In this document: positions 32,292 through 56,631 of the stretch, piece after piece
How positions within the stretch are numbered: the first letter of the stretch is position 1
How the letters are laid out: each line of letters opens with the position of its first letter
NCBI GenBank assembly: GCA_026014875.1
Contig: JAOZHO010000037.1
Location: forward strand, 359,819-423,818
DNA from: Candidatus Bathyarchaeota archaeon
GTDB lineage: Archaea; Thermoproteota; Bathyarchaeia; TCS64
Reading direction: 5' to 3'
DNA length: 64,000 nt
Program-made: the position numbers and the translations under genes
Notes under the pieces: model-generated
What the model was told of the DNA's origin: nothing
Databases searched by the model: none
The model's input: only the letters and a program-made list of their open reading frames with translations

Positions 32292-33053
32292 ATGACGGGC
32301 GACTCCAACATTGAGACAGTGCGCAGAGACTTGGAAGCCGAGGCCTCGATGCACGGGCTGAAATCGGTCCTCGGAGTCGCCCCATTCAGGGAAGTCCATG
32401 ATGGGCTTCTCCCGGTACAGAGGACGAAGCTCAGGGAAATCGCTGGGGAGCGATTCGACTCATTCATGGAGGGGGGCTCCTTCATCAGCATCGCCTTCGC
32501 CTACCCGGAGGAGGCTATCGACGCCATCGCCGTGGAGATTGGAGGGGGATTCGATCTGGATACTTGGAGATTTTATTCTGACTGGTATGACCGCCTCAAC
32601 CAAGCCCTCAACGAAACCTCCTCGGCCATGGCGGAAAGGATAGGGGGGATATCGATCCCCGCCACGGCAGCTGGGATCGCCACCAAGATAGAGCACGTGG
32701 AGGAATATTATCCCCTCGTGGTGTCCCACAGGGTGGCTGCGGAGCTTTCGGGGGTGGGCTGGAGGGGGAAGAACGGACTGATCGTGAACCCGAGATACAG
32801 CTGCGCCATCAGGTTGGCATCCATCATCACGGACATGCCCCTCGAGAGGACGGAGCCGCTCCAAGACGGCTGCGAGGGCTGCACGGCCTGCCTCGATGCC
32901 TGCCCGTTTCTCGCTAACAAGGATAGGCTCGAGAACTACAGGGAGCAGTGCCGCAGGTATATTGTGTCTCTGGGCCTCGAACACGAGGTCTGCGGAAAGT
33001 GCATCAAGGCCTGCTACAGGGAGAGCGCCCACGGGGACGCCTTCAGGCTGTGA
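32292..33053 (+). CDS. QueG-family (epoxyqueuosine reductase-like) 4Fe-4S protein
   Basis: AAELSGVGWRGKNGLIVNPRYSCAIRLASIITDMPLE matches the QueG core (AGLGWIGK..LLI.P..GS...LGEI.TD..L). CEGCTACLDACP and CGKCIKAC ferredoxin motifs follow. Shorter than bacterial QueG. Confidence 0.6.
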   Translation: MTGDSNIETVRRDLEAEASMHGLKSVLGVAPFREVHDGLLPVQRTKLREIAGERFDSFMEGGSFISIAFAYPEEAIDAIAVEIGGGFDLDTWRFYSDWYDRLNQALNETSSAMAERIGGISIPATAAGIATKIEHVEEYYPLVVSHRVAAELSGVGWRGKNGLIVNPRYSCAIRLASIITDMPLERTEPLQDGCEGCTACLDACPFLANKDRLENYREQCRRYIVSLGLEHEVCGKCIKACYRESAHGDAFRL

Positions 33054-33055
33054 GG

Positions 33056-33349
33056 CTAGGGCTTGGCGTATAGCTCGATGAAGTTGCAGAGGCTACACCT
33101 GTAGCCGGCAATCCTCATCTTCTTGACCTCGTCCCTCTTGAAGATGAGCCCCTTCTTCTCCCCTGTCCTCTCCTCCCACATGGGCGCGGTTGTGAAAGTC
33201 TCGATCCCAGGGGGGAGACCCTGATGCATGAACCCTGGGGTCATCGGATCCATAGGGGGAACGTTCATCTTCTCGACGGGTACGGAGATCCATCCTTGCA
33301 CCATGCTTCCGCCGCACTTTGGGCAAACCTTCGGCTGAACTTCGCTCAA
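33056..33349 (-). CDS. zinc-ribbon protein, function unknown
   Basis: N-terminal CPKCGG and C-terminal CSLCN cysteine pairs in a 97-aa protein. Confidence 0.45.
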   Translation of the reverse strand: MSEVQPKVCPKCGGSMVQGWISVPVEKMNVPPMDPMTPGFMHQGLPPGIETFTTAPMWEERTGEKKGLIFKRDEVKKMRIAGYRCSLCNFIELYAKP

Positions 33350-34231
33350 TCATGACACCTCTAGATATCCTTTGGATAGCTTAGCCACCACAGTATATAG
33401 GGGATCCACTATCTGGGCTATTCTCGCTTTGCCTGCGATGCTCAGGAACATGTATGCGTCGTCCCTTTCCCAGCCGTGGTCGGCGACCATCCACTCCACC
33501 ATCTCCCTGAAGGCGTGTCGGGCGGCGTCCTCAAGGGGCCGGGCGCTCCCCACGGTCATTATCTCGTCGGGGGCCTCGATCCGGGGCCAGTTGATGGTCC
33601 ATCCCTTCCTGAGCCCGAACTTGAGGGTGACTAGGGCGTCCACCTCTACGGCCACTCCGCAGACCTCACCGTCCCCCTGGACGGCGTGGACGTCCCCGAG
33701 TTTGAAGAGGGCGCCGGGCCTCGTCACCGGGAGCAAGAGCTTGTTGCCGGGCCGGATGTCGGGGCAGTCCATGTTCCCTCCGTGGCGTCCCGGGGTGAGG
33801 CTCGAGACGGCCTCGACCTCTGGGGCCACCCCTATGGTCCCGATGAAGGGGTCCGCTTCCAGCTCCAGTTTCTTGCCGTCGTCCCTCACGTATGTGATTA
33901 TGCCATTCTCGATCTCGCAGACCTTCCGTCTGGGCTCCATGAGGTTGAGCCATCCCTCCAGGGCCCCGAAGCCCGGGATGATGGCCACGGTCCCTTCACC
34001 GGGGAGCTCTATGTCGATGACCTCCACCACCAAGGTGTCTCCCGGCTCCGCCCCCTCGACGTACAGGGGCCCGGTAGTCGGGTTGGTGATTCTGGCGAGG
34101 GCGCTCCATGTCTCGATCTCCACGGTCTCCCCCGGCTTCACGTTCGCGATGGGGGGAGTGCGGGGATCGAGGACGGAGTCGAGGAGCGCATCGAGTTCCT
34201 CCTCGGGCTTCTTCTTAATCCTCCTCGTCAT
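33350..34231 (-). CDS. acetamidase/formamidase family protein (FmdA_AmdA)
   Basis: Family match over 293 aa. Confidence 0.8.
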   Translation of the reverse strand: MTRRIKKKPEEELDALLDSVLDPRTPPIANVKPGETVEIETWSALARITNPTTGPLYVEGAEPGDTLVVEVIDIELPGEGTVAIIPGFGALEGWLNLMEPRRKVCEIENGIITYVRDDGKKLELEADPFIGTIGVAPEVEAVSSLTPGRHGGNMDCPDIRPGNKLLLPVTRPGALFKLGDVHAVQGDGEVCGVAVEVDALVTLKFGLRKGWTINWPRIEAPDEIMTVGSARPLEDAARHAFREMVEWMVADHGWERDDAYMFLSIAGKARIAQIVDPLYTVVAKLSKGYLEVS

Positions 34232-34373
34232 TAGATTGACCTACTCCTGTTCTAGGGTAAAGACATTAAAACACTTCCCCGAGGAGCGAGCCGAATAGTA
34301 AAGAATAAAAGGCGGTTCCATGCTCAGTTGTTTACGGTCCGTTGGACCAGTGCATAAGGTAAAGGTGAAAGAA

Positions 34374-34673
34374 TTGGAATACATGTACGCTGCGATGCTG
34401 CTTCACAGCGCCGGAAAGAATGTCGAGGAGACATCTATCGGCAACATTCTAAATGCTGCGGGGATCTCACCTGACGCCGTCAGGGTAAAAGCCCTCGTTG
34501 CCGCCCTCGCAGAGGTCGACATCGATGAGGCCCTCAAGGCCCCCGTGCTCACTGCCGCCGCTGCTCCCGCCACTACCGCCCCTGTGCAGGAGGAAGAGGA
34601 GCAGCCCAAGGAGGAGGAGAAGGAAGAGGAAGAAGAGGACCTCCAGGGCCTCAGCGCCCTCTTCGGGGCTTAG
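34374..34673 (+). CDS. rpl12: 50S ribosomal protein L12 (P1 stalk protein)
   Basis: TTG start at 34374 gives MEYMYAAMLLHSAGK..., the archaeal L12 N-terminus. Ends in the stalk tail EEKEEEEEDLQGLSALFGA. The track's ATG 34320 is an upstream extension; GGTGA lies upstream of the TTG. Confidence 0.85.
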   Translation: MEYMYAAMLLHSAGKNVEETSIGNILNAAGISPDAVRVKALVAALAEVDIDEALKAPVLTAAAAPATTAPVQEEEEQPKEEEKEEEEEDLQGLSALFGA

Positions 34674-34814
34674 ACTCTCTCCCAACTTTCTTCTAGATCG
34701 AGCCCTTAAACTAGTTTTAAGGAACCATACCCAGATGCTACCGGATAGTCTACATCTCGTCCATTCACCTAAGCTGCCTTTGACGGGCACACAATCTCGA
34801 CTAAGGTGATTTGA

Positions 34815-36581
34815 TTGATTAGTTCTAACAAGCTGAAAAAATTGTTCTTGGCGTTTTTCCAGAAAAATGGACATAAGTTTATCGTGAATGCGTCTCTTAT
34901 GCCGGAGAACGACTCCACCGCGTTATTCATCTCGGCCGGGATGCATCCGCTTGTACCCTATCTACTGGGTCAGCAGCATCCAAGTGGGAGAAAACTGGTA
35001 AACGTACAGAAATGCCTCAGAACCAGCGACATCGATGAAGTGGGGGACAGTTTCCACCTGAGCTTTTTTGAGATGCTGGGGAACTGGTCTCTCGGAGACT
35101 ATTTCAAGGAAGAATCAATACCGTGGAGCTACGAGTTCCTCACAAGCAAAGAATGGCTAAACATCGATGAAGAAAAGCTGAGCGTCACGGTCTTCGCCGG
35201 GGACGAGAAAATACCCAGGGACGCGGAAAGCGCGAGAATATGGGAAGGACTCGGAATCCCAAAGGATAGAATATTCTATCTGCCTAGAGAGGATAACTGG
35301 TGGGGACCCATAGGCAGCACGGGGCCGTGTGGACCCGACACGGAGATTTTCTATGACACGGGCAAGGAGCCGTGCGGAAGCGAGTGTAAGCCCGGCTGCT
35401 CCTGCGGAAAATACAACGAGATATGGAACAACGTCTTCATGGAGTACAATAGAACCCCGGACGGAGAGTATGAGCTGCTTGAACAGAAGAACGTCGACAC
35501 CGGGATGGGAGTCGAGCGGACGGTCGCAGTCTTACAGGGAAAGGATAACGTCTACGAGATCGAAATATTCGCTCCCCTGGTTAATGGAATAAAAGAACTA
35601 TCTGGCATAGAGGTTATCTCTGAAGATCAGATTAGAAGCGTTAGAATAATTTGTGATCATTCTCGTGCGGCTACTTTCCTTCTGGCCGAGGGAATAGTTC
35701 CCTTGAACGTGGAGCAAGGATACGTTTTAAGGAGGGTCATCAGGGGAGCCATCAGACACGGAAAACTGCTAGGCATAGAAAAAGAGTTCCTGAGCGTACT
35801 GTCTCAGATCATAATAGAGACATATGTTGAAGATTACCCTCACCTAAAGTCGAACGAAGACTTTATCGTAACCGAGTTTGAAAAAGAGTATAAGAAGTTT
35901 AACAACACGCTGGCTAGGGGTCTAAACAGATTCAACAGGATAGCCAGAAACAAGGAGAAAATCGACGGCAAAGACGCCTTCCTCCTCTACCAGAGCTTCG
36001 GCTTCCCAATAGAGATAACAAAGGAACTGGGGAAGGAGAACGATATCTTCGTCGACGTAGACGGCTTTCATGAAGAGTTCGAGAAACATCAGAAAGTGTC
36101 CAGAGCTGGCGCCGACAAAAGGTTCGGCAGCGGCTTAGCCGACAAGTCTGAGGCGACGGTGAAACTGCACACCGCGACACACCTACTCAACGAGGCGTTG
36201 AGACGCGTCCTGGGGAAGGATATCACCCAGAAGGGTTCAAACATAACACAGAAGCGTCTAAGGTTTGACTTCAATTTCGACAGGAAGCTAACTGCTCAAG
36301 AGAAAAAGGATGTAGAGGCGATAGTAAATGGGACGATTAACGAGGCTCTCCCCGTCAAGAGAATCGAGACCACGTTAGACGAAGCAATAAGGATGGGAAG
36401 CCAGGCAGCGTTCGAGCAGAAATACGGGGAGAAGGTCTCCGTATACTCCATCGGCGATTTCTCGACGGAGCTGTGCAGTGGTCCACACGTGGAGAACACC
36501 GGCGAGCTTGGACGATTTAAGATAATAAAGGAAGAAGGGATTTCCGCAGGCGTGCGGAGGATAAGAGCAGTTCTAGAATGA
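34815..36581 (+). CDS. alaS: bacterial-type alanine--tRNA ligase, short form (catalytic + tRNA-recognition + core editing site; no editing beta-barrel, no C-Ala domain)
   Basis: QKCLRTSDIDEVGD..HLSFFEMLGNWSLGDYFK and GPCGPDTEIFYD...EIWNNVFMEYNR match the bacterial AlaRS catalytic core. Editing zinc-site motifs HTATHLL and CSGPHV are present; the protein ends at GVRRIRAVLE. 588 aa against about 870 for a full AlaRS. The gene is about 48% GC in a 62% GC genome. TTG start behind AGGTGA. Confidence 0.75.
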   Translation: MISSNKLKKLFLAFFQKNGHKFIVNASLMPENDSTALFISAGMHPLVPYLLGQQHPSGRKLVNVQKCLRTSDIDEVGDSFHLSFFEMLGNWSLGDYFKEESIPWSYEFLTSKEWLNIDEEKLSVTVFAGDEKIPRDAESARIWEGLGIPKDRIFYLPREDNWWGPIGSTGPCGPDTEIFYDTGKEPCGSECKPGCSCGKYNEIWNNVFMEYNRTPDGEYELLEQKNVDTGMGVERTVAVLQGKDNVYEIEIFAPLVNGIKELSGIEVISEDQIRSVRIICDHSRAATFLLAEGIVPLNVEQGYVLRRVIRGAIRHGKLLGIEKEFLSVLSQIIIETYVEDYPHLKSNEDFIVTEFEKEYKKFNNTLARGLNRFNRIARNKEKIDGKDAFLLYQSFGFPIEITKELGKENDIFVDVDGFHEEFEKHQKVSRAGADKRFGSGLADKSEATVKLHTATHLLNEALRRVLGKDITQKGSNITQKRLRFDFNFDRKLTAQEKKDVEAIVNGTINEALPVKRIETTLDEAIRMGSQAAFEQKYGEKVSVYSIGDFSTELCSGPHVENTGELGRFKIIKEEGISAGVRRIRAVLE

Positions 36582-36740
36582 TCGAGCCCCCACATTCACC
36601 ACATTATTCAAAATAAAAAGGTCATAGAAGCTCTACTGGCTCAGTTCGGCTGAAACGGGTACGCAACTGTTTTTACACATAACCTTTATTCCACTCTCCA
36701 TCGAGGAATAACCGCATAGCCAGCAAGGATAGTTGGAAAC

Positions 36741-39656
36741 ATGGTTGACTGGAAGCAGATCGAGGAGAAATGGAGAGGCAGGTGGGCCGAAGCGCATGTC
36801 TTCGAGTCCGACCCGGACCCTGGGAAGCCCAAGTACTACCTGACGGTGGCCTACCCCTACCCCAACTCGCCCCAGCACATCGGCCACGGCAGGACTTACA
36901 CCCTCACCGATGTTCACGCCCGGTACAGGAGGATGCAGGGCTACAACGTCCTCTTCCCCATGGCGTGGCACTTCACGGGGACCCCCGTCATCGCGATGGT
37001 AGACAGGCTCAAGATGAGAGACCCCGAGCTCCTCGACACCTTCCTCAACATATACAACGTCACCGAGGAGAGCCTCCATGAGCTGGAGACCCCCATCGGG
37101 ATGGCGAGCTATTTCGCCCAGGAGATCAAGGCCGGGATGCAGCTCATGGGGTTCAGCATCGACTGGCGCCGGGAGTTCACCACCGTCGACCCTTACTACG
37201 GCAAGTTCATCGAGTGGCAGTTCGCCAAGCTCCGGCAGAGGGGCTTCGTCATCCAGGGGAGCCACCCCGTGGGCTGGTGCCCCGGCTGCGGCAACCCCGT
37301 GGGGCAGCACGACACCGTGGGCGACGCAGAGCCCGAGATCGAGGAGTTCACCGTCCTCAAATTCAGAAGAGGCGACGTCGTCTACCCCGCTGCCACACTG
37401 AGGCCCGAGACCGTCTTCGGGGTCACCAACATGTGGCTCAACCCCGACACCCTCTACGTCCAGATCAAGGTGGACGGCGAGGACTGGCTCGTGAGCCCCG
37501 AGGCCGCGAACAAGCTAAAGTTCCTGGGGCGGGAGGTCGAGGTCGTCGACGAGATACTGGGAGCCAAGCTCATCGGGGGCACTTTAACGAACCCGATGAC
37601 TGAAGCCGAGATCCCCATACTGCCCGCAAGCTTCGTGGACCCCAAGAACGCCACAGGGGTCGTCATGTCGGTTCCAGCCCACGCCCCCTTCGACTATGTC
37701 GCCCTGGAGCAGCTGAAGAACGGGCCGAAGGAGGTCTTCGACCGCTTCGGACTGAGGCCGACCGAGATGGCCAAGCTCAAGCCCATCAGCCTCATCGAGC
37801 TCCCCGGCTGGGGGGAGAGCCCCGCCGTGGACATCGTCGAGAGGATGGGGATCACAGACCAGAACGATCCCCGGCTCGAGAAGGCGACCAAGGAGGTCTA
37901 CAGCCGGGAGTTCCATAACGGCAGGCTACGGGGGAACACCGGCCAGTATGCGAACCTCCAGGTGGAGAGGGCTAAGGACGCCGTCAAGGAGGACATGGTC
38001 GCTGATGGTAGGGCCACCACGATGTACGAGCTCATAGCGCCCGTGCAGTGCCGCTGCGGGAGCGACGTCCTCGTCAAGATATTCGAGAACCAGTGGTTCA
38101 TCGACTACGGGGACCAGTCCTGGAAAGAGCTGGCCCACGAGAACCTGGCGGGGATGGAGATCATACCCCGGGAGCTCCGCCGAGAGTATGTCAACGTCAT
38201 CGACTGGCTGGACCAGAAAGCCTGCGCCCGGAACGTGGGGATGGGCACCAAACTCCCCTGGGCGAAGGACTGGATCATCGAGAGCCTCAGCGACTCCACC
38301 ATCTACATGGCTTACTACACGGTCATCAAGGACATCAACAGGGTGAAACCCGAGGCGGATGCCCTCACCGAGGAGTTCTGGGACTACGTCTTCCTGGGGA
38401 AGGGCTCGGTAGAGGATGTCTCGGAGGCCACGAGCATCACAGTCGATGACTTGGAGGCCATCAGGGGCCAGTTCCAGTACTTTTACCCCCTGGATGCCCG
38501 GCATTCGGGGAGGGACCTGATCCCCAACCATCTGACGTTCATGGTCTTCAACCACGACGCCATCTTCCCCCGGGAGGACTGGCCTCAAGGCATATTCGTC
38601 AACGGGAGCGTCCTCATGGAGGGGCAGAAGATGAGCAAATCCATGAACAACATCATCCCCCTCGTCAACGCCATCGACAAGTTCAACACCGACCCCTTGA
38701 GGCTAGCGCTGATGATCACCGCGGAGCCCCTCAAGGACGCTGATTTCAGCCCCGATCTAGCGAAGTCGATGCAGAACAACCTTGAGAGGTTCTACTCCAG
38801 CGCGATGAGCATCGTCGGGGAGAAGACGGAGGGTGAGCCCGTGCTGACGGAGATAGACGAGTGGATGCTGAGCCGCCTCCAGTCCTATATCGTCGATGCG
38901 AACGAGGCGATGACCGAGCTAAAGGTGCGCAGGACCATCCACGCCGCCCTCTACAACCTCAACCAAGACCTGGACTGGTACAGCAAGAGGGTGAGCTCGA
39001 AGAGGGACCGCGCAGACAGGAAGAACGCCATCAACCACGTCCTCAAAAAAGTGGTGGACACCCAGGTGCGGCTGCTGACACCCTTCACCCCCCACCTCTG
39101 CGAGGAGATCTGGGAGGCCATGGGAAGAGAGGGATTCGTCGCGTTCGCCCCCTGGCCTACGCCTGAACCCGAGCTCGTCAAGCCCGAGGCCGAGGAGATG
39201 GAGCAGGGGATCAGGGACAGCCTGGAGGACGTCCAGAAGATCGTGAAGGTCACAGGCATCAAGCCCAGCAAGATCAGCTTCTACACCGCCACCTCGTGGA
39301 AATGGAAGGTCTACCTCAGGGCCTTGGAGCTGGCCAGGGAAGAGAAGCTGGACATAGGCACACTGATACGGGACGCCTTCAAGGACGACGAGATGAAGGT
39401 GCGGGCCAAGGAGGTCCCAGCCTTCGCCAGGGTCGTAGTCGAGGACGTCACCAAGACCCCCGCGGCCATCGTGGAGAGGAGGCTGGCGATGGGTCAGATC
39501 AACGAGTCCAACCTCATCGAGGACGCCTCGAGCTTCTTCGGGCAGGAGTTCGGATGCGAGGTCACCGTCGCCAACGAGAGCGACCCCTGGATCGAGGACC
39601 CCGCCAACAGGGCGAAAAGGTCGAAGCCCTACAGGCCTGCGATCTACGTCGAGTGA
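36741..39656 (+). CDS. leuS: leucine--tRNA ligase (archaeal type)
   Basis: 971 aa, class I HIGH (PQHIGHGRTY) and KMSKS motifs; archaeal-type domain order. Confidence 0.95.
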   Translation: MVDWKQIEEKWRGRWAEAHVFESDPDPGKPKYYLTVAYPYPNSPQHIGHGRTYTLTDVHARYRRMQGYNVLFPMAWHFTGTPVIAMVDRLKMRDPELLDTFLNIYNVTEESLHELETPIGMASYFAQEIKAGMQLMGFSIDWRREFTTVDPYYGKFIEWQFAKLRQRGFVIQGSHPVGWCPGCGNPVGQHDTVGDAEPEIEEFTVLKFRRGDVVYPAATLRPETVFGVTNMWLNPDTLYVQIKVDGEDWLVSPEAANKLKFLGREVEVVDEILGAKLIGGTLTNPMTEAEIPILPASFVDPKNATGVVMSVPAHAPFDYVALEQLKNGPKEVFDRFGLRPTEMAKLKPISLIELPGWGESPAVDIVERMGITDQNDPRLEKATKEVYSREFHNGRLRGNTGQYANLQVERAKDAVKEDMVADGRATTMYELIAPVQCRCGSDVLVKIFENQWFIDYGDQSWKELAHENLAGMEIIPRELRREYVNVIDWLDQKACARNVGMGTKLPWAKDWIIESLSDSTIYMAYYTVIKDINRVKPEADALTEEFWDYVFLGKGSVEDVSEATSITVDDLEAIRGQFQYFYPLDARHSGRDLIPNHLTFMVFNHDAIFPREDWPQGIFVNGSVLMEGQKMSKSMNNIIPLVNAIDKFNTDPLRLALMITAEPLKDADFSPDLAKSMQNNLERFYSSAMSIVGEKTEGEPVLTEIDEWMLSRLQSYIVDANEAMTELKVRRTIHAALYNLNQDLDWYSKRVSSKRDRADRKNAINHVLKKVVDTQVRLLTPFTPHLCEEIWEAMGREGFVAFAPWPTPEPELVKPEAEEMEQGIRDSLEDVQKIVKVTGIKPSKISFYTATSWKWKVYLRALELAREEKLDIGTLIRDAFKDDEMKVRAKEVPAFARVVVEDVTKTPAAIVERRLAMGQINESNLIEDASSFFGQEFGCEVTVANESDPWIEDPANRAKRSKPYRPAIYVE

Positions 39657-40068: not shown

Positions 40069-40364
40069 ACGAAAAGAGAAGCCCCCATCCACGGCATCGG
40101 TTCCCGACATATGTTCTCTACCCGGCATCTAGGTTACGCTACTCGATTCCCGCTTCTCCTTGGCAATAGCCGAGAACGAGGCTCGCCCGTCCTCCTGGAG
40201 AATCTTGAGGAGGCCTAGGTCATTCTCGCTCCGCGCCACCGTGAACTACCCCTGCAGCATGAAGGCATGCGACTGCCCGAATTTAAGATAGTTCAGATTT
40301 TCGCCTAACCAAATGAGACGGTGAAATGAACACCTTCGACACGCAATAGTGTACTGAAGACGGC

Positions 40365-41546
40365 TTAGAGGAGGTAGAGGGTGCGATCGGTCCGGGTGAG
40401 GAGCTCAAACCCATCCGAGGTCACCAGTATCGTGTCCTCCAGCTGGATCCCGCCCCAACCCAACTCCAGCACAGGGATATCGACGTTGACGACCATCCCC
40501 TCGAGGAGCTCATCCTCCCCCGTCTTCGATATCACGGGCCTCTCGTTGCACTCGATCCCGAGGCCGTGCCCCATCGTCGAAGAGTTCCGGCCTACCTCGG
40601 CATTCGCGAGCTCTTTCTCAGCCGCCGCGTATATCTCTGACACCTTCGCCCCGGGCTGTACAGCATCCAAAGCTGCGTCTTGGGCGGCGATGATCGCCTC
40701 CCACCGCCTTTCGGCCTTTGCGAGGGGCCTGCCGATGACTGCGGTCCTGGAGACGTTGGAGTGATAGTGATCCCACGTGCACCCCAGGGTGAGGCGGACC
40801 AGGTCCCGCTTCTTGGCCTCGTACATCGTGGGGAGGGGGTTGGGGTAGGCGCTCCGCTCCCGGAAGCCGATGAGGTTCTGGGTGACCCGCCCCCCATCGT
40901 AGGCCACGGAGTAGCCGTACATCCCGGCGAGGTCGAGCTCGGTGATCCCGTCCCTGGCGATCTCCAGGGCGTCCTCCATCGATTTCTCGGTGATCGCCGT
41001 GGCCCTCTTGATCCTCTCGACCTCCCCCTCGGTCTTGACGAGCCTTATCTCCCTCAGGAGGTTGGCTCCGTCGACGAGCTCCGCCCCCTGGAGCTTAGAC
41101 TTGAGTTGCTCGTATTGGGCCGGGCTCAGGCCCGACGTGTCAAGGGCGATCTTCGCCCCGGCGAGCCCCTTGTCCTCGACGGCCTTGAGGAGGGCGCTGG
41201 CTCCGTCAGCCTCAGGGCTCGCGGAGCTGTACAAACCCATGATGAGCGCCGTCTCCTCCGGGGGGTCCCCGGGTTCCCCCAGGCCGACCCCGGACTCTCC
41301 GTAGAACCGTATATCCCCGATCCAGGTCTGGTTCTCGACGAGGAGGTCCGCCTCGTTCAAGGGCGCGACTATCGCGGGGCTATCCTCGAGGGGGAGAATC
41401 GCGTAGGCCTCGACTCCGCAGCCGAGGCTCTTCCCCAGGCTCCAGTAGTTGGAGATATAGAAGACGTTCTCCGTGGATGTTGCGATGAGGGCGTCTAATC
41501 CCTCTCTCTGCAGGACCTCGAAGGCCCGTTCACCGTTAAGGGGCAT
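40365..41546 (-). CDS. M24 family metallopeptidase (Xaa-Pro aminopeptidase/prolidase/creatinase-like)
   Basis: Creatinase N-terminal domain plus the pita-bread C-terminal domain with metal ligands. Confidence 0.85.
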   Translation of the reverse strand: MPLNGERAFEVLQREGLDALIATSTENVFYISNYWSLGKSLGCGVEAYAILPLEDSPAIVAPLNEADLLVENQTWIGDIRFYGESGVGLGEPGDPPEETALIMGLYSSASPEADGASALLKAVEDKGLAGAKIALDTSGLSPAQYEQLKSKLQGAELVDGANLLREIRLVKTEGEVERIKRATAITEKSMEDALEIARDGITELDLAGMYGYSVAYDGGRVTQNLIGFRERSAYPNPLPTMYEAKKRDLVRLTLGCTWDHYHSNVSRTAVIGRPLAKAERRWEAIIAAQDAALDAVQPGAKVSEIYAAAEKELANAEVGRNSSTMGHGLGIECNERPVISKTGEDELLEGMVVNVDIPVLELGWGGIQLEDTILVTSDGFELLTRTDRTLYLL

Positions 41547-41685
41547 GCTGGACGGGTTATGGTTGTATGATCTGTTTTTAAGATAAATGGATTCGAAAAT
41601 CAGTTGAACCGCTGCGCCTGCCCTGGGGAGGGCGTGGAACGTTTAAACTCCGGGGAGTGCATCACAGGGAGAGGAGGACGCGGGG

Positions 41686-42414
41686 ATGGCGAGGCGGAGA
41701 CGGGGCTACAGGAGAGGCTATCCCGTGGCGGTCCTCATCGGCTTCGACCGGGATCGAGCCGCCCTTTGGAGGGTCTACAGCCAAGTCGTCAAGACGCATT
41801 CCACGATCGAGGCTCCGCGAGGAGGCAAGAGGGAGCTCTACAACTTCCATGAGGCCGTCGTGGACGCCCTGAGGCCCATCCTGAAGGAGGGGGTGGGAAG
41901 CGTCGTCATCGCGGCCCCCGCGAGGACAAGCCACGTGAAGGGGTTCCTCGACCACGTCGCTAAGCACCAGCCATGGATGACGAGGGGCTCCGGGTCCGCC
42001 ACATTCACCGGGATCGTGGGCTCGGCCACCACCCAGGAAGAGGTCTCCGCTCTGGTCAGGACGGGGGAGGTTCAGAGAGCCATCGGGACATCGGCGGCGG
42101 GGGAAGCCGATCGAATAAAGGGCCTACTGGAGAGTCGCCTCGCGCGGGAGGATGCGGGTCCAATCCTGTACTCCCTGTACGAGATCGAGGGATTGATCTT
42201 CGAGCAGAGGGTAAAGGGGAGACCTGAACCCGAGCACCTGATCCTCACGGACAGGTTTCTGGCGGCTCACAGGAGGAGAGCCCAGAGGCTCATGGAGGCC
42301 TCGAGGAGCAGAGGGGTCAGGGCACACGTCGTCGGCGTCAAGACCGCGGCCGGTCAGCGGGTGGAGCAGCTGGGGGGGATGGTCCTCCTCGCCAGGCCCG
42401 GGGTCGATCGCTGA
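41686..42414 (+). CDS. hypothetical protein with Arg-rich N-terminus; possible eRF1/Pelota-superfamily (VLRF1/baeRF1-like) fold
   Basis: MARRRRGYRRGYPVAVLIGFDRD..ALWRVYSQVV is loosely reminiscent of the Pelota/eRF1 N-terminus, and a GQ-containing loop (KTAAGQR) lies near the C-terminus. Weak, motif-level only. Confidence 0.4.
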   Translation: MARRRRGYRRGYPVAVLIGFDRDRAALWRVYSQVVKTHSTIEAPRGGKRELYNFHEAVVDALRPILKEGVGSVVIAAPARTSHVKGFLDHVAKHQPWMTRGSGSATFTGIVGSATTQEEVSALVRTGEVQRAIGTSAAGEADRIKGLLESRLAREDAGPILYSLYEIEGLIFEQRVKGRPEPEHLILTDRFLAAHRRRAQRLMEASRSRGVRAHVVGVKTAAGQRVEQLGGMVLLARPGVDR

Positions 42415-42445
42415 TTTCTTTAGCTGATATGCGCAACGCTAGGAC

Positions 42446-43621
42446 ATGGCAGATTCGCTCAAAGAGAAGGTTTCCAAGGAGATCGACGCCCGCCGGGAGA
42501 GGCTGATCGAGGTCAGCATGGCGATCCACGACGAGCCCGAGCTGGGCCATCAGGAGTTCAAGGCCTCGGCGCTCCTAGCCTCCGAGCTCGAAGGGCTAGG
42601 CTTTGAGGTCGAGAAGGGGACCTCGGGGCTCTCCACCGCATTCAAGGCGGTTCGCAGGGGCAAGGGGGAGGGCCCCACGGTCGCGATCATCGCGGAGTAC
42701 GACGCGCTCCCCGAGCTGGGCCACGCCTGCGGTCACAACATCATAGCGGCGTCCGCTCTGGGCGCAGGTGCGGGAATGAGCGCGGTCATGGACGAACTGG
42801 ATGGGACGGTCATCGTCTTCGGGACCCCCGCGGAGGAGGGTTACGCGGAGAACGCCGGGGGCAAGGTATTGATGATCGATGAGATAACGGCGGCTGACGT
42901 CGCGATCATGATCCACCCGTCATCCAAGTATGGGGTGGGCGCTACATCCCTGGCCCGGGAGTCATTCATGATCTCTTTCAAGGGGAAGGCCGCTCATGCA
43001 GGGGCCATCCCCGAGAGGGGCATCAACGCTCTTGAGGGTGTCCTCCTGACGTACCAGGGGATCAACGCCCTCCGGCAGCATCTCATGAGGGACATAAGGA
43101 TCCACGGGGTGATCAGGGATGGTGGAGCGGCCCCCAACATCGTGCCCGAGACGGCCTCCGCCCACTTCTATGTCAGGGCACCGACCCTGGAGCTCCTCAA
43201 GGAGATCCTGGAGAAGGTGAAGAACTGCGCCCGGGGCGCGGCCCTCGCCACAGGGGCGGAGGTGAGCTTCAGGCAGGTCGCGAACACCTACGCCAATAAA
43301 GTCCCCAACATGAGCCTCGGGGAGGCGTTCAAGGCTAACCTCGAGGCGCTCGGAGCCGTGTTTCCTGAGGCGGCTTCCGAGAGGCCTGGGGCCTCCACCG
43401 ACTTTGGTACGGTGAGCCAAGCTATGCCCGCCGCTACCGCCTCCGTCTTCATCGGGGAGAATGTAGCCCTACACTCATACGAGGCCACGGAGGTCACCGC
43501 GTCTGAGACAGCTCATGAGGCGGTGATGATCAGTGCGAAGGGTCTAGCCCATACCGCCATAGACGTTCTCACCGACGCAGATCTCCTCCGGAGGATCAAG
43601 GAAGAGCATTCGAGCCGCTGA
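42446..43621 (+). CDS. M20 family amidohydrolase (aminoacylase/hippuricase-like, M20D)
   Basis: Family match including the metal-binding His/Asp/Glu positions. Confidence 0.85.
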   Translation: MADSLKEKVSKEIDARRERLIEVSMAIHDEPELGHQEFKASALLASELEGLGFEVEKGTSGLSTAFKAVRRGKGEGPTVAIIAEYDALPELGHACGHNIIAASALGAGAGMSAVMDELDGTVIVFGTPAEEGYAENAGGKVLMIDEITAADVAIMIHPSSKYGVGATSLARESFMISFKGKAAHAGAIPERGINALEGVLLTYQGINALRQHLMRDIRIHGVIRDGGAAPNIVPETASAHFYVRAPTLELLKEILEKVKNCARGAALATGAEVSFRQVANTYANKVPNMSLGEAFKANLEALGAVFPEAASERPGASTDFGTVSQAMPAATASVFIGENVALHSYEATEVTASETAHEAVMISAKGLAHTAIDVLTDADLLRRIKEEHSSR

Positions 43622-43646
43622 GACCAGGTGGGAGGGAGATTCCTCC

Positions 43647-44120
43647 CTATTCTTTAGGCTGGGTAACGACAAAAAGGCAGTGGGGATCGTCGGTCGTGAG
43701 GATCTCCGGCAGCTGCACGTCGAGGTCCGGCCTGTACTCCTGCCAGAAGGCGTGGTGGAAGTACTGGCAGTACCTCTTCCCCACGTCGACGCAGCCTCGC
43801 TCCCTCCACTGCTCCTGGAAGGGGCACCGGTAGGTGTAGGAGACGAGCTTGTCGTCCTCGAAGACCGTCCTCGTCTTCTCGGTCCCCGAGTGCCCGGGGA
43901 GGTCATAGTGCTCGAAGAGGGATCTCAGGTTGACGGGGAGGCCCTGCTCTTGATGCCTCTTCCTCAACCGCTCGCCCCTGGCTCTCCCGTACTCCTTGAC
44001 GGCCCGAATGAGGGCCTCTTCCCCCTTCTCGCCGAAGCTGTCCACCATCTCCCGGGCGAAGACGCAGTACATGAGGGCCCAGAGGTCCCCGAACTCGTCG
44101 ATGTCCTCCTGAGTGACCAT
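43647..44120 (-). CDS. L-2-amino-thiazoline-4-carboxylic acid hydrolase-like (ATC_hydrolase, PF14196) protein
   Basis: Recalled family resemblance over the C-terminal 160 aa; start taken at the internal MVTQEDIDEF. Confidence 0.4.
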   Translation of the reverse strand: MVTQEDIDEFGDLWALMYCVFAREMVDSFGEKGEEALIRAVKEYGRARGERLRKRHQEQGLPVNLRSLFEHYDLPGHSGTEKTRTVFEDDKLVSYTYRCPFQEQWRERGCVDVGKRYCQYFHHAFWQEYRPDLDVQLPEILTTDDPHCLFVVTQPKE

Positions 44121-44435
44121 GGAAACCACGAAACAACTGAGGCCCCACCACGTTAAAACATCTGCTTGAGGGGCCCGTTGTGCGCGCGATGGTGGACGTC
44201 CACGCAATGGTCGATGCTGGAGACCTAGGCATATCACTTTCGACACGGAGGGGAACGGCGTCTATGCCTCGACTGGCCAAGAACCACACTACAACCACAT
44301 GAACATGAAGGGCGAGGAGAAGGCGCTTAGGAGGATATGGGTCAAGCCTTAGACCCTAGCTGCAACAGTCATCCGACTCGTGATTCGCTGAAATGCTTAA
44401 AGGCTTGGAGCCAGATACCGGGCGGGAGTGATGGG

Positions 44436-45671
44436 ATGACTTCTTCGGAGGAGCTCGAGAAGAAGGGGCTGGTTTACAGAATCTCAGCCATCTCGGCCCT
44501 CAGGGGCGCCGTCTTCAACGCCTGGAGAGTCGTCTGGCAGCCCTTCGTCTTGAGCCTCGGGGTCTCCATGAGCTGGCTAGGTGGCCTCGAGAGCTTCCTA
44601 GACCTCACGAGAATCGCGGTGATGCCCCTCTTCGGCAAAGCCGCTGACGCACACGGGAGGCGGAGATTCATCGTCGCCCGGGAGATACTCACCCTGGCAG
44701 CGGCGGTTCTCTACGTCTACGCCGGGTCCTGGCGGTTCATCTTCCTGGGGGTAATGCTCACGGGCCTCTCATTGGCCATCTATCCCATCTGGAACACCGT
44801 GATCGCCGAGTCGTCGGAAGGGAGAGAACTCGGATACACATACAGCATCGTGGGCACCATAACTCTGGGGCTCAGCCTCGTCGCCACCCTCGCGGCCGGG
44901 TACGTCGCCAGCGCCTACGGCTTCAGAACAGTATTCACGGGGGCGGCGGTGCTTGCTCTGCTCGCGTTCCTCTTGGTGGTGATGAGGCTGCCCGAGACCC
45001 TGCCCCCGGAAAAGAAGGGCTCCGTTAACTGGAGAGAGCTCACCGGGTCTTTCGTAGAGACATTAAGGCCCCCTCGCTACCTCTGGGGCTTCTACATCGC
45101 GATGTCCGTGGACCTCTTCGCATTCAACCTCGGCTACAGGCTCCTCAACGGGATGCTCGCTAGTGAATATGGGTACACCCCCGCCATGCTGGGGCTGATA
45201 TCCGCAGCGACCATCGGGGCAACGGCGATCGCCCAGATCCCCTTGGGGAGGCTCGTGGACAGGATCGGCTACGTCAAGTTTCTGATCATCTCCCAGCTCA
45301 TCGCGTGCGTTGTCCTCGCCACATTTGTCGTCTCGAAGAGCTTCCTAGCAGTCGTCGCCGCCCAGATCGCCCTGGGTGTGTCGGCCGCCTTCTGGACCCC
45401 CGCGGAACAGGCATGGATCGCCGTAAACGTTGACCCTGAGAGGAGGGCTCAGGCAATCGGGGGGTTCTCGACCTTCAGGGGGCTCATCGCCTTCCCCGCG
45501 CCCTTCATTGGGGGGCTCCTCTTCGACGCTTACGGCTTCGATGTCCCCATCCTCATCAACTTGGGCATCGCATTGATCGACGTTATCCTCATCTACGTGC
45601 TCGTGAAGGAAAGAGTCCGGCCGGACGCGGCAGCGGGAGCACCGGAAACACAAGGTGAATCCATCCTCTAG
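44436..45671 (+). CDS. MFS transporter
   Basis: 12-TM MFS topology; start ATG 44436 behind GGGAG (the track's 44337 start is an extension). Confidence 0.75.
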   Translation: MTSSEELEKKGLVYRISAISALRGAVFNAWRVVWQPFVLSLGVSMSWLGGLESFLDLTRIAVMPLFGKAADAHGRRRFIVAREILTLAAAVLYVYAGSWRFIFLGVMLTGLSLAIYPIWNTVIAESSEGRELGYTYSIVGTITLGLSLVATLAAGYVASAYGFRTVFTGAAVLALLAFLLVVMRLPETLPPEKKGSVNWRELTGSFVETLRPPRYLWGFYIAMSVDLFAFNLGYRLLNGMLASEYGYTPAMLGLISAATIGATAIAQIPLGRLVDRIGYVKFLIISQLIACVVLATFVVSKSFLAVVAAQIALGVSAAFWTPAEQAWIAVNVDPERRAQAIGGFSTFRGLIAFPAPFIGGLLFDAYGFDVPILINLGIALIDVILIYVLVKERVRPDAAAGAPETQGESIL

Positions 45672-45714
45672 CCTAAATATCACCTGAGACAGGGTCAGGC
45701 TGAGAGGATTCAGT

Positions 45715-47199
45715 ATGAGGATAGCGGTCGTGAGCTACTCCCACGAGACCTGCACCTTCTGCCCAGAGATCGGCACCCTGGAGCTCTGGGAGAAAGGCGG
45801 CATCAAGTACGGCGACGAGAGCATCGTCACGGAGGGAGAGGGAAAGGGCTACATCACGGGCTACAAGGAGGTGGCCGAGACAGAGGAGGACGTGGAGCTC
45901 GTAGGCATCATCAGGACGAGCTGGCCCGCTACCACCGGCTACGGGAGCTGGAACACCACGGAGTCCTTCGACGTCATCTCCGGGAGGATCGTGGACCGCC
46001 TCGCGGACGCCGGGGAGCTCGACGGGGTCCTCCTAGCGCTCCACGGGGCCATGGCGGTCACGGGTATCCCCCGACCCGAAGCCGAGCTGGCCCGGAGGGT
46101 GAGGAAGGTCGTGGGGGATATCCCCATCATGGTCACCCTGGATCTCCACGCCAACGAGGACATCGAGCTCGCCAACGCAGTCGACGGGGTCTTCATACTC
46201 AAGACCTATCCCCACCTTGATGCCCATGAGACCGGCGTGATAGCTGCACGGTGCATGGTGGAGACAGTCAGGGGCGGGTTCAACCCCACGATGGCCCACA
46301 GGAGGCCCGGCATCGTCTGCGCCAGCGTCTTCCAGGCCTCGGAGTACCACCCCATGAAGGCGGTCTACGACCGCTGCAGGGAGTGGGAGGCGAAGGGGGT
46401 CTACTGCGCCTCCGTGGCCCCCGGCTACGCCTACTCCGATGTCCCCGACGTGGGGGTCTCGGTGTTCGTCGTCGCCGACGGAAACCGGGCCCTGGCGGAG
46501 GAGGCCGCCCAGGACCTCTCCGATCTCGTCTGGAGCTTCAGGGAGGATCTCACCCGGGGCCTGCCCAAGGCTGAGGAGGGGGTCGCGGCTGTCATCGAGA
46601 TGGTGGGGAAGGGTGAGAAGCCCGTGGTCATCGCCTATCATGATGACCGCCTCGGGGATGGCACCCACATACTCAAGGAGCTCATCAACCAGGGCGCCAA
46701 GAACTGGTGCTCCACCGGGATCGCGGATCCCAAGACCCTGGAGAGGCTCAAAAAGAAGAACAGGGTGGGGGAAATGGTGAAGGTGACCATCGGGGGATGG
46801 CTCCACGAGATCTCCGGGGAGCCCGCGACCATCATAGGCAGGATCGAGCACCTGGGCCCGGCGGAATGGGTCGAAACCGGTCCCATGAGGAGGGGGGCCC
46901 AGCAGAAGATCGACTTCATCGCGAGCCTCGACATCGGGGAGAACAGGCACGTCATCATCACTGAGCGGCTCTATGCCCCCATGAGCGCCGATCCCCTCAA
47001 GGCCATAGGCATCGACGTGAACAGCCTCGATATCGTCGAGCTCAAGAGCCGGGTCCATCACAAGGCCTACTGGGACACGTGGTCGGCGGTCGACTATCCG
47101 ATTGATCCTCCCGGATTGGGCCCTGCGGATCTGAGCACCTTGGACTACGAGAACTTGCCCTGGGGCATCTACCCCGTCGGGGAGAAGTGGGAAAAGTAG
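45715..47199 (+). CDS. M81 family metallopeptidase (MlrC/microcystinase C-like, DUF1485+MlrC_C)
   Basis: Family match across about 490 aa (MRIAVVSYSHETCTF...). Confidence 0.8.
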   Translation: MRIAVVSYSHETCTFCPEIGTLELWEKGGIKYGDESIVTEGEGKGYITGYKEVAETEEDVELVGIIRTSWPATTGYGSWNTTESFDVISGRIVDRLADAGELDGVLLALHGAMAVTGIPRPEAELARRVRKVVGDIPIMVTLDLHANEDIELANAVDGVFILKTYPHLDAHETGVIAARCMVETVRGGFNPTMAHRRPGIVCASVFQASEYHPMKAVYDRCREWEAKGVYCASVAPGYAYSDVPDVGVSVFVVADGNRALAEEAAQDLSDLVWSFREDLTRGLPKAEEGVAAVIEMVGKGEKPVVIAYHDDRLGDGTHILKELINQGAKNWCSTGIADPKTLERLKKKNRVGEMVKVTIGGWLHEISGEPATIIGRIEHLGPAEWVETGPMRRGAQQKIDFIASLDIGENRHVIITERLYAPMSADPLKAIGIDVNSLDIVELKSRVHHKAYWDTWSAVDYPIDPPGLGPADLSTLDYENLPWGIYPVGEKWEK

Positions 47200-47285
47200 A
47201 TCCAGTTTCCTCCACCTTTTTTTCGGAGGATACAACCTGTGAATAGTCGTCTGCCTATCCAAAGATGCCAAGAGACGCTTCGGGC

Positions 47286-47942
47286 TCAGACGAAAACGAT
47301 CTCCCATAAACCCTTGATCTCATCGATGATATAGTCAGGTTTCGAGTCAGCGAGAACCCCTGCATCATAGAATCCCGTGGCAACAGCCACGGTGAATACG
47401 CCGGCCCCTTTACCCGCTGCAAGGCCCGTCGGCGAGTCCTCCACTAGGACCGCCTCATGGGGCTCCACTCCCAGGGCGTCGAGGGCGAGGAGAATCATCT
47501 CGGGGCTCGGCTTGGGGCTCGAGACGTCGTCGTATCCGACGATGAGGTCGAAGTATCCGTCTATCCCGAGGTGGGCGAGGATCTTCTCCGCCTCCGGCGT
47601 CGACTTGTTGGTAGCCAGGCACTGCTGGAGGCCCTCGTCCTCGAAGTGGGTGAGGGTCGCCTCCACGCCGTCGAGGATGCGGGCATGATCCAGGGAGACA
47701 TCCATGAAGACCTCCCGATACCTCTTGAAGCATCCCTCGATTATGCCCCATCTCTCCGGGGAGAGAACCCTCCGATACATCTCGTCGAGGGGGACCCCGA
47801 CCATGGACCGGATCTCCTCGTCGCTGCGCGGCGCCTCACCGGCGTCCCTGAGGGCGGCGTTGAACGAGAGGCAGATGGCGTCGCTGGTGTCGACGAGGAC
47901 CCCGTCCAGATCGTAGATGATGAGGCGGATACCGGCGAGCAT
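47286..47942 (-). CDS. HAD-superfamily hydrolase (phosphoglycolate phosphatase-like, subfamily IA)
   Basis: Motif I DxDGVL(V)D at the N-terminus; cap and core domains. Confidence 0.85.
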   Translation of the reverse strand: MLAGIRLIIYDLDGVLVDTSDAICLSFNAALRDAGEAPRSDEEIRSMVGVPLDEMYRRVLSPERWGIIEGCFKRYREVFMDVSLDHARILDGVEATLTHFEDEGLQQCLATNKSTPEAEKILAHLGIDGYFDLIVGYDDVSSPKPSPEMILLALDALGVEPHEAVLVEDSPTGLAAGKGAGVFTVAVATGFYDAGVLADSKPDYIIDEIKGLWEIVFV

Positions 47943-48010
47943 ACTCCATCTGAGATTCCCCGGGATTTAACATCTGAGCCCCGTGGATAATATTTTAACC
48001 CGGGGGAGGA

Positions 48011-48415
48011 GTGAGGATGAGAATCAGGATGAACGCCCCCACATTCGACCACGTATTAATCGTCGCCCGCGACCTCGAGCGCTCGATCGAGTTCTACACT
48101 CTCATCGGTTTCGAGCACCTGGAGACCATTGAGAGGCCCAACGACAGGGTCGCCGTGATGCGCCTCGGCGGCGTCAAGATCGAGCTCATGAACCTCCCCG
48201 AGGGTAAGGAGACCCTGAGGAAACCCAGGAGGCTCACGGACCTCGGGTTCAGACACATCGGATTCAAGGTCGACGACCTCACCGCGGTCTACGAGAGGTT
48301 GAAGGACAAGATCGGCTTCGACTCTCCGCCGAGGAAGATAGCGGGCAGGGGGAACCGGATGACGGTCTTCTTCAAGGACCCCGACGGGGTCGAGATGCAC
48401 TTCGTCCAGGAATGA
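48011..48415 (+). CDS. VOC family (glyoxalase/bleomycin-resistance/dioxygenase fold) protein
   Basis: Paired beta-alpha-beta-beta-beta modules (FDHVLIVARDLERS ... GFRHIGFKVDD); probable start at the internal MNAPTF. Confidence 0.75.
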   Translation: MRMRIRMNAPTFDHVLIVARDLERSIEFYTLIGFEHLETIERPNDRVAVMRLGGVKIELMNLPEGKETLRKPRRLTDLGFRHIGFKVDDLTAVYERLKDKIGFDSPPRKIAGRGNRMTVFFKDPDGVEMHFVQE

Positions 48416-48473
48416 TCCCGGGCCTCATCCCTAAAGGTTAAGCGCCCCTCCCGCAATTCTATTTCCGGTTAAG

Positions 48474-50246: not shown

Positions 50247-50304
50247 AATCTACTCCTTTTTTTCAACCTTATCATTTTTTATCGTCACACGGAACCTTTC
50301 CATT

Positions 50305-53385: not shown

Positions 53386-53459
53386 GTGCCATATAGACTA
53401 GTTTGTAATACAAACCTATTTATATGGCACACGCACATTAGCGTCCGATGAATATGGCA
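53386..53459. promoter_or_regulatory. nested palindromic operator overlapping a TATA-like box just upstream of the island's first gene
   Basis: GTGCCATATA (53386..53395) ... TATATGGCAC (53421..53430) encloses the inner palindrome GTTTGTA-A-TACAAAC (53401..53415). A third ATATGGCAC copy lies at 53451..53459 across the ATG; TTTATAT sits about 25 nt upstream of the ATG. Confidence 0.45.
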
Positions 53460-54092: not shown

Positions 54093-54415
54093 TGTCAGAG
54101 CCAGAGACCAACGACATCAGCAGTCCCATAATGGGGATTGACAGGCTTATCCATGAACCGGCGAGGTTCAGCATCATGGCTAATCTCTATGTCGTAGAGG
54201 AGGCTGACTTCCTATTCCTGTCTCGTCGCATAGGTCTAACGCGGGGCAACCTGTCGGCTCACATGAGGAAACTGGAAGAGGGAGGCTATATCGAGGTGCG
54301 GAAAGGGTTCATGGGTCGTAGGCCCCACACTGTGCTTGCCATCACCGAAAAAGGCCAAGAAGCTTTCAAGAATTATGTATCCGATATAAAAAACGCCCTT
54401 CAAGGGTTTGAATAA
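54092..54415 (+). CDS. winged-helix transcriptional regulator
   Basis: GLTRGNLSAHMRKLEEGGYIEVRKGF is a classic wHTH recognition helix/wing. GTG start overlapping the upstream stop by 1 nt. Confidence 0.65.
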   Translation: MSEPETNDISSPIMGIDRLIHEPARFSIMANLYVVEEADFLFLSRRIGLTRGNLSAHMRKLEEGGYIEVRKGFMGRRPHTVLAITEKGQEAFKNYVSDIKNALQGFE

Positions 54416-54432
54416 GCGGATGTGATGAAAGG

Positions 54433-55896: not shown

Positions 55897-55902
55897 AGGC
55901 AT

Positions 55903-56324: not shown

Positions 56325-56329
56325 AACAA

Positions 56330-56520: not shown

Positions 56521-56631
56521 GTGCCAACGACGGCCGAATCAGAGCAGCACCACACCTACACGAAGGAATCCAGAGGCTGCAATAGATGCACCCTCGACGG
56601 GAACCCCAACCGCAAGTTCAAGAAGATGCCG

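Follow-up and report, generated by a model that had tools for sequence, protein, structure and literature searches.

Archaeal-type alanyl-tRNA synthetase (AlaRS) is the norm in archaea. The presence of a gene for a short AlaRS of bacterial type in the genome of a Candidatus Bathyarchaeota archaeon raises the question of whether it charges tRNA-Ala for its host, assists a resident synthetase, or is a passing acquisition. The gene, alaS, lies in a stretch of 64,000 nucleotides (assembly GCA_026014875.1, contig JAOZHO010000037.1, positions 359,819 to 423,818 of the forward strand), which we refer to as the window and whose first letter is position 1 of all coordinates below. We suggest that alaS is probably the working AlaRS of this Bathyarchaeia lineage, a compact enzyme of the NF002436/PRK01584 family, and we hold with only slightly less confidence that it is the sole AlaRS copy. 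A principal role is favoured by the conserved position of the gene, by selection equal to that on the leucyl-tRNA synthetase gene leuS, by intact active sites and by membership of an equivalog family.

A bacterial-lineage synthetase in an archaeal genome

The gene and its product are as follows:

34815..36581, + strand: alaS, compact bacterial-lineage alanyl-tRNA synthetase, 588 aa (open reading frame, NF002436, Pfam, identity to MCW3990433.1)

The open reading frame (ORF) comprises 588 codons with a TTG start and a TGA stop. A Shine-Dalgarno-like GGTGA lies 6-10 nt 5' of the TTG (34805-34809). Given that this arrangement of motif and TTG is kept in five other Bathyarchaeia loci (L001, L004, L091, L092 and L011), we take the start to be real.

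The protein scores 888.8 bits against NF002436 (PRK01584, a 595-position "alanine--tRNA ligase" equivalog; cutoff 529), and the match runs end to end, with residues 3-588 on profile positions 2-593. It also exceeds the cutoff of the bacterial alaS model TIGR00344 (609.1 bits against 457; best stretch, profile positions 2-431 of 847), whereas the archaeal AlaRS model TIGR03683 gives 236.8 bits against a cutoff of 744.7, split in four fragments. Pfam places tRNA-synt_2c on residues 7-456 (profile positions 2-453 of 552) and tRNA_SAD on residues 541-583. The AlaXM model NF040865 reaches 71 bits, below its cutoff of 300, and is matched over positions 91-233, its core half. The solved structures that match best are catalytic fragments, from Aquifex (325 bits) and Escherichia coli (302 bits); archaeal enzymes score 134-161 bits. 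The family scores and the structural matches bear out the bacterial type proposed in the preliminary description of this locus, and all six motifs quoted there occur in the translation.

The window protein is identical to MCW3990433.1, which NCBI lists as "alanine--tRNA ligase [Candidatus Bathyarchaeota archaeon]". It is an already correctly annotated member of a curated, widely distributed family, not a new kind of system, and the name of the gene needs no change. The earlier statement that such proteins are essentially uncharacterised holds for their biochemistry, on which we found no paper for any NF002436/PRK01584 member, but not for their classification, given the curated family and the NCBI annotation.

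Conserved position and selection in Bathyarchaeia

The immediate neighbours of alaS are translation genes:

34320..34673, + strand: ribosomal stalk protein P1, archaeal (TIGR03685, 105 bits against a cutoff of 100; Pfam Ribosomal_60s)
36741..39656, + strand: leucyl-tRNA synthetase (LeuRS), archaeal-type, 971 aa (TIGR00395 leuS_arch, 1038 bits; NF008957, 1230 bits)

The window is archaeal, as judged from its archaeal P1 and archaeal-type LeuRS, and comparison with annotated relatives adds S19e, L31e, L39e, SecE, prefoldin and FtsY. In the JGI contigs L001-L006 the gene order FmdA / P1 / alaS / leuS / DUF454 ... M24 is the same as in the window. The P1-alaS-leuS order is kept in L001-L006 and in the more distant metagenomic locus L092 (Ga0214473_10032142), and P1-alaS in L091 and in L011 (GTDB genome DYS_8, alaS 73% identical). 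A metagenome scan yielded at least two further Bathyarchaeia alaS loci, and all Bathyarchaeia loci examined have P1 upstream of alaS.

At the amino acid level, the alaS of the window is 0.88-0.89 identical to those of L001 and L004, and its neighbours 0.87-0.93. Nucleotide identity to L001 within alaS (0.81-0.94) is level with that of the flanks. The synonymous divergence (dS) of alaS between the window and L001, 0.50, falls within the range of the flanking genes compared (0.45-0.72), which argues that alaS has been inherited together with its neighbours. The ratio of nonsynonymous to synonymous divergence (dN/dS) is 0.05-0.10 for alaS and 0.06-0.11 for leuS. The gene is a fixed, selected and vertically transmitted part of the translation-gene neighbourhood of this lineage, not an islet of one genome. 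The idea of a freshly acquired islet, put forward before relatives were compared, fails on two counts: the same P1-alaS(-leuS) position occurs in relatives, some with LeuRS and P1 only 67-70% identical, and purifying selection on alaS equals that on leuS.

The explanation that competes best with a principal role is a second, auxiliary AlaRS, condition-specific or used mainly for extra editing, beside a canonical archaeal alaS of about 900 aa; a second AlaRS is what the preliminary description had suggested. It would agree with the archaeal norm. The weak TTG start and a codon usage unlike that of the host (G+C content at third codon positions, GC3, 0.61) could mean low expression, and our window covers 64 kb of a 445,722-bp contig. 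We nonetheless consider an auxiliary enzyme rather unlikely, though it is the one alternative that keeps real plausibility. An accessory gene would have to be under the same dN/dS as leuS, keep its place among translation genes across lineages whose LeuRS are 69% identical, and retain all residues of the synthetic site. Neither the window nor 1.5 Mb of fetched loci holds a second AlaRS-like sequence; together they are a small and very partial sample of any genome. We also take the NF002436 family to be the only AlaRS in small bacterial genomes such as that of Borrelia.

Base composition and possible allele exchange

As the preliminary description had noted, alaS is a compositional outlier. Its GC is 0.490 and its GC3 0.606, against 0.615 and 0.895 for leuS, a GC of 0.60-0.66 for neighbouring real genes and a GC3 of 0.78-0.90 for the other family-supported genes of the window. 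Window GC as a whole is 0.597, and alaS lies 2.7 standard deviations under the mean of equal-length windows. The AT-rich flanks that had been counted as further evidence of transfer are ordinary spacers. Their GC (0.454 upstream, 0.440 downstream) is within the normal range of intergenic regions here (mean 0.518 +/- 0.059 for 26 spacers), and they add nothing to the case for transfer because several other spacers are equally low (0.41-0.47). Three features lie in or reach into these flanks:

34674..34814, + strand: upstream spacer with a palindrome at 34703-34722 and GGTGA at 34805-34809 (sequence, GC 0.454)
34696..34705, + strand: left copy of the 10-nt direct repeat GATCGAGCCC (repeat search; significance uncertain)
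36580..36589, + strand: right copy of the same repeat, overlapping the alaS stop codon (repeat search)

Within the 64 kb, GATCGAGCCC has exactly two copies, and they bracket alaS; degraded versions occur in L001, L004 and L091. Both copies are preceded by TTCTAGA, directly on the left and with a 2-nt gap on the right. A rough estimate of finding such a repeat by chance between two spacers of about 150 nt is 0.02-0.03, and exact repeats of similar length occur nearby. The pair could be an insertion or recombination scar, or chance. Scans for promoters and terminators gave results at chance level, and an Rfam scan of 33000-38000 returned one sub-threshold chance match, to a vertebrate long non-coding RNA.

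Low GC and GC3, together with a bracketing repeat, are what a mobile-element insertion specific to this genome, placed recently between P1 and leuS, would leave behind. Such an origin is very improbable, given that relatives at 73-89% identity hold the same gene at the same place and that nucleotide identity to L001 is as high in alaS as in its flanks. Nor do the surroundings contain an integrase, a transposase or a tRNA gene, and chance alone gives other exact 10-12-nt repeats in the same 2.2 kb.

The composition of alaS varies among relatives. Its GC3 is 0.50 in L011 (where flank GC is 0.49), 0.61 in the window, 0.66 in L001, 0.74 in L091, 0.76 in L092 and 0.82 in L004, whereas leuS has a GC3 of 0.87-0.92 wherever it is present in the Bathyarchaeia loci. 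In the other hosts checked, the GC of the short alaS equals that of its flanks. In L004 alaS has a dS of about 1.0-1.16 and the neighbouring genes one of 0.36-0.69, a difference that fits amelioration through directional synonymous change. The alaS product of L092 is 83% identical to that of the window, but LeuRS is 69% and P1 67% identical; within the genus alaS evolves somewhat faster than LeuRS, the reverse of this pattern. This is most economically read as replacement of alaS alleles, at a conserved locus, from lower-GC Bathyarchaeia relatives after the hosts diverged. Sliding-window identity along alaS, inspected for a mosaic structure, showed no clear recombination breakpoint.

Domain architecture, active sites and tRNA recognition

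Three parts can be distinguished in the protein:

34815..36113, + strand: aminoacylation domain (catalytic and tRNA-recognition parts), residues 1-433 (alignment, Foldseek)
36114..36149, + strand: short linker, residues 434-445, in place of a beta-barrel of about 110 residues (pLDDT, alignment)
36150..36578, + strand: AlaX-S-like editing core, residues 446-588 (Foldseek, NF040865, invariant residues)

The aminoacylation domain aligns with residues 3-426 of the Aquifex structure 1riq and 5-436 of the E. coli structure 3hxu. When the protein is aligned with 12 full-length bacterial AlaRS, 52-70 residues and a further 45-52 residues are absent between positions 438/439 and 446/447. The segment lacking is the 'TPFYAExGGQ' beta-barrel. 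The long enzymes also extend 161-188 residues past the C-terminus of the short one. An AlphaFold2 model built from an alignment of 44 diverse short forms has a mean predicted local distance difference test score (pLDDT) of 89.3, and its sole disordered stretch is residues 434-442 (pLDDT below 50). In Foldseek comparisons, residues 1 to about 433 superpose on AlaRS catalytic fragments with a target-normalised template modelling score (TMt) of 0.79-0.89, and the last 145 or so residues cover the whole of AlaX-S (1v7o/1v4p; TMt 0.84-0.87). The TMt of 0.51-0.53 against AlaX-M corresponds to the core half of that protein. Alignment, model and Foldseek thus agree with the earlier claim of a short architecture that lacks beta-barrel and C-Ala and ends with the editing core.

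Individual residues were compared across 108 aligned AlaRS, 83 of them short and 25 long. Those equivalent to E. coli R69, E209, N212, V214, D235 and G237 are invariant in all 108 sequences. In the numbering of the window protein, the alanine-pocket residues V207, D228, G230, N205 and E202 are invariant, as are motif 2 Arg69 and motif 3. The editing zinc motifs are HTATH (H452, H456) and CSGPH (C554, H558). These four ligands, together with Q472 and R582, are likewise invariant in 108 of 108. Relative to E. coli and Aquifex, the motif 2 loop is four residues shorter ('RT--SDIDEVG' against 'RAGGKHNDLENVG'). This does not serve as a signature of the short forms, since many full-length bacterial AlaRS share the deletion.

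The residues that read the G3:U70 pair of tRNA-Ala are less uniform. An Asn303 and Asp400 pair, in E. coli numbering, has been reported to be more than 95% conserved in AlaRS; D400 contacts the 2-amino group of G3, and the D400N and D400A changes lower kcat/Km about 25-fold (PMC6055181). The equivalent of N303 is kept here as Asn298, and the flanking Tyr392 and Gly396 are kept too. The equivalent of D400 is Gln393 (window positions 35991-35993), within the conserved 'FLLYQSFGFP', and the Asn/Asp pair is therefore incomplete. Across the 83 short forms, position 393 is Asp in 48, Gln in 16, Glu in 10, Ser in 5 and Thr in 4. Asp is thus absent from 35 of them (42%), bacteria with small genomes among them. 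The Gln393 group comprises all Bathyarchaeia, all DPANN and a few sequences from the candidate phyla radiation (CPR) and Lentisphaeria.

Could the protein be a catalytically dead synthetase, kept for trans-editing of tRNA-Ala or for a role outside translation? Gln in place of the G3-reading Asp and the absence of C-Ala and beta-barrel would fit such a protein. We suspect that this is not the case, and a dead enzyme seems highly unlikely, given that motif 2 Arg69, the alanine pocket and motif 3 are invariant, that the score exceeds the equivalog cutoff of NF002436, and that Gln is common to a whole subclade of DPANN, Bathyarchaeia and part of CPR, with 35 of 83 short forms lacking Asp. A role in trans-editing only appears unlikely, as none of the catalytic residues checked is altered.

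A chimera of assembly or binning, or a longer gene cut short by a frameshift, for which only the compositional contrast speaks, can hardly be credited: independent JGI, ENA, NCBI and Logan assemblies give the same gene of 586-592 aa with the same neighbours, the frame ends at the normal C-terminus of the family ('GVRRIRAVLE'), and the frameshift raised as a possible objection in the preliminary description is ruled out because the length is conserved in at least 120 clusters formed at 90% identity (87-100% identical; nearly all 586-592 aa, a few 568-583 aa) and the 595-position profile is matched from 2 to 593.

Distribution, phylogeny and origin

A profile-free search of 1.84 billion representatives returned many proteins of about 570-650 aa at 43-55% identity, ahead of bacterial enzymes of about 875 aa (39-47%). 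The three nearest representatives with inspected contigs have a bacterial context (Lon, sigma-54 activators, two-component systems, GGDEF, SLH). In a scan of GTDB, archaeal carriers were found in Bathyarchaeota (73%), Woesearchaeota (51-61%), Micrarchaeia (55-57%), Nanoarchaeota (54%), Promethearchaeota (55%) and Methanomethylophilaceae (52-53%). Bacterial carriers, at 48-57%, include Treponema, Sphaerochaeta, Borreliella, Clostridia, Lentisphaeria, Chloroflexi and numerous CPR phyla. Outside Bathyarchaeia, the best GTDB matches are Woesearchaeota (59-61%), with bacteria at or below 57%. Borreliella, Treponema, Clostridia and CPR bacteria share the same 1-588 architecture.

Phylogeny was assessed with a neighbour-joining distance tree (100 bootstraps) that included long as well as short AlaRS. 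The short forms all fall in one clade (bootstrap 100) that is nested among the long bacterial forms (94). Together with the GTDB distribution, this upholds horizontal acquisition, inferred earlier from composition, as the ultimate origin of the gene. The Bathyarchaeia form a clade (100) and group with DPANN at 43, Promethearchaeota group with Chloroflexi at 59, and the Methanomethylophilaceae copies fall among gut Clostridia. Two signatures, 'FLL[YF]QS[FY]GFP' and 'LAE-GI', are common to Bathyarchaeia and DPANN, and support a link between them that is weak in the tree. The pattern as a whole indicates several independent transfers of short alaS from bacteria to archaea.

The surroundings of the gene in other archaea were inspected as well. 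The one Woesearchaeota contig checked is archaeal, with L1 and P0 nearby. An alaS link to the L1/P0 stalk operon in Woesearchaeota (L012) was set aside as coincidence, given that the genes are about 1.7 kb apart, are not adjacent and do not recur in L013. A tRNA-Ala with canonical G3:U70 lies 3-8 kb from the short alaS in L013 (Woesearchaeota, 19157-19401) and L049 (Methanomethylophilaceae, 6964-7041). In Micrarchaeia, a gene of IS605 OrfB/TnpB type is directly upstream of the short alaS (L019, 8474-9598). Elsewhere on the Woesearchaeota contig L013 (3024-4787), a 587-aa ORF scores 569 bits against the anti-phage model NF053872, below its cutoff of 630.

Proposed role and history

From the intact residues and the known biology of AlaRS we propose the following mechanism. 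The N-terminal 433 residues would form alanyl-adenylate in the class II pocket and transfer alanine to tRNA-Ala. The tRNA would be read via its acceptor stem (G3:U70) alone, with no C-Ala to grip the elbow, and the enzyme is probably a monomer in the absence of that domain. A flexible linker of about 10 residues would join the synthetase to the AlaX-S-like zinc editing core, which may hydrolyse Ser-tRNA-Ala, and possibly Gly-tRNA-Ala, in cis. The short family probably compensates via a modified acceptor-stem contact. The E. coli 461N and Aquifex N453 fragments charge G3:U70 substrates. N-terminal fragments of both enzymes are active without C-Ala, and the Tupanvirus AlaRS, which lacks C-Ala, supports yeast growth (PMC10036535).

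The history that we envisage begins with the short form arising within bacterial AlaRS and entering archaea several times, the Bathyarchaeia copy being closest to DPANN and CPR-type sequences. The gene would have been fixed directly downstream of P1 before the sampled Bathyarchaeia split, and inherited there since. Its low GC, in a genus of about 60% GC, would be the residue of a lower-GC source, with amelioration under way. That source may have been the original donor, or a later allele replacement from a lower-GC relative within Bathyarchaeia.

Several observations weigh against this account. The sister relationship with DPANN has just 43% bootstrap in a distance tree. The higher identity of alaS than of LeuRS and P1 between the window and L092 would not be expected of simple vertical descent. 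A long-fixed gene should have ameliorated, and our account explains only in part why GC3 has stayed low in all high-GC lineages. With Gln393 in place of the G3-reading Asp, full activity is presumed from the sequence, and deletion of C-Ala sharply reduces the activity of the E. coli and Archaeoglobus fulgidus AlaRS (PMC8887476). Finally, a canonical archaeal alaS could lie elsewhere in the genome, of which a 64-kb window was covered.

A more inclusive interpretation can be offered as a tentative possibility. In this Bathyarchaeia lineage, as in several DPANN lineages, the archaeal AlaRS may be gone altogether, its place taken by a portable minimal AlaRS of bacterial lineage that would read tRNA-Ala with neither C-Ala nor the Asp (Gln393 instead) and whose essential gene would still be exchanged between archaeal lineages at a fixed locus. 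Such exchange would account for an alaS identity of 83% beside 67-70% for LeuRS and P1, and for the GC-poor alaS of every high-GC host.

Other features of the window

The P1 ORF as listed begins at an ATG 21 codons upstream of the match to the P1 model, and in relatives the called length is 94-97 aa, which makes the ATG at 34383 the probable start. Downstream of leuS, about 1 kb that is present in L001 (15340-16593) and L004 (15261-16523) is absent from the window at around 40129-40364. In those two loci, the interval between the DUF454 gene and the M24 peptidase holds an ORF of 222-233 aa and an AsnC-family regulator.

A second low-GC stretch, and the lowest-GC region of the window, lies at 53448-57051 (GC 0.46-0.52, GC3 0.46-0.66). 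It includes an ORF without a family match (53448-54092), a winged-helix HTH_34 regulator (54092-54415) and a 487-aa alpha/beta-hydrolase with a coiled-coil C-terminal part (54433-55896). Positions 40365-52839 and 60976-62751 hold a dense run of peptide and amide hydrolase genes, plus an MFS transporter. The run includes an M24 peptidase, an M20 amidohydrolase, an MlrC-like protein, two amidohydrolase-family proteins of about 590 aa, and an 844-aa protein with an M14 carboxypeptidase domain.

Significance and comparison with known systems

AlaRS has been described as one four-domain 'prototype' across life, with few odd exceptions (PMC10036535, PMC8887476). The short family, which lacks two of the prototype modules, occurs widely among bacteria, and at least four groups of archaea have acquired it. 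In the literature searched we found no account of AlaRS of short form or bacterial type from archaea, DPANN, spirochaetes or CPR bacteria. Nor did that literature report that the family occurs in archaea, Bathyarchaeia included, that it has often lost the G3-reading Asp, or that composition and identity follow an odd pattern at the Bathyarchaeia alaS locus. If Bathyarchaeia have no other AlaRS, the enzyme would show cleanly how, in nature, an essential component of translation can be displaced across domains, which the universality of the G3:U70 identity makes possible. Recognition of tRNA-Ala without binding of the elbow could then also be studied conveniently in a minimal enzyme.

The closest known relatives are the short AlaRS of the NF002436/PRK01584 family (about 595 aa) in Borreliella, Treponema, Sphaerochaeta, Clostridia and CPR bacteria, with which the Bathyarchaeia protein shares architecture, length and tree clade. 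Identity to named bacterial members is 50-57% over residues 1-588. It differs from these in its archaeal host and in belonging to a subclade, with DPANN and some CPR, that has Gln for the G3-reading Asp. Unlike the NF002436 copies in the other hosts checked, the Bathyarchaeia gene is also a GC outlier in its own genome.

With canonical bacterial AlaRS (E. coli, 875 aa) the protein has in common the aminoacylation domain (E. coli residues 5-436, 302 bits), the alanine pocket and the HxxxH/CxxxH zinc site. In contrast to that enzyme, it is without the beta-barrel editing half of about 110 residues and the helical linker and C-Ala of about 160-190 residues, and the four-domain organization is accordingly absent. 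It is presumably monomeric and independent of the tRNA elbow. The archaeal AlaRS (A. fulgidus 3WQY, Pyrococcus horikoshii 2ZZE), which represent the type (TIGR03683) of the resident enzyme expected in an archaeon, would carry out the same reaction and have the same domain order in the part that is shared, but they score only 134-161 bits, with 19-23% identity in structural alignment.

The editing module resembles the free-standing AlaX-S (P. horikoshii PH0574; 1V4P, 1V7O, 1WNU), on which the C-terminal 143 residues superpose with a root-mean-square deviation of 2.0-2.9 and the same zinc motifs. Here the module is instead fused in cis to a full synthetase, and sequence identity is about 25%. 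The Tupanvirus mini-AlaRS is likewise a natural AlaRS without C-Ala and without the conserved Asp (PMC10036535). That enzyme is derived from eukaryotes and has no editing domain, whereas the Bathyarchaeia enzyme keeps its editing core and is of bacterial lineage.

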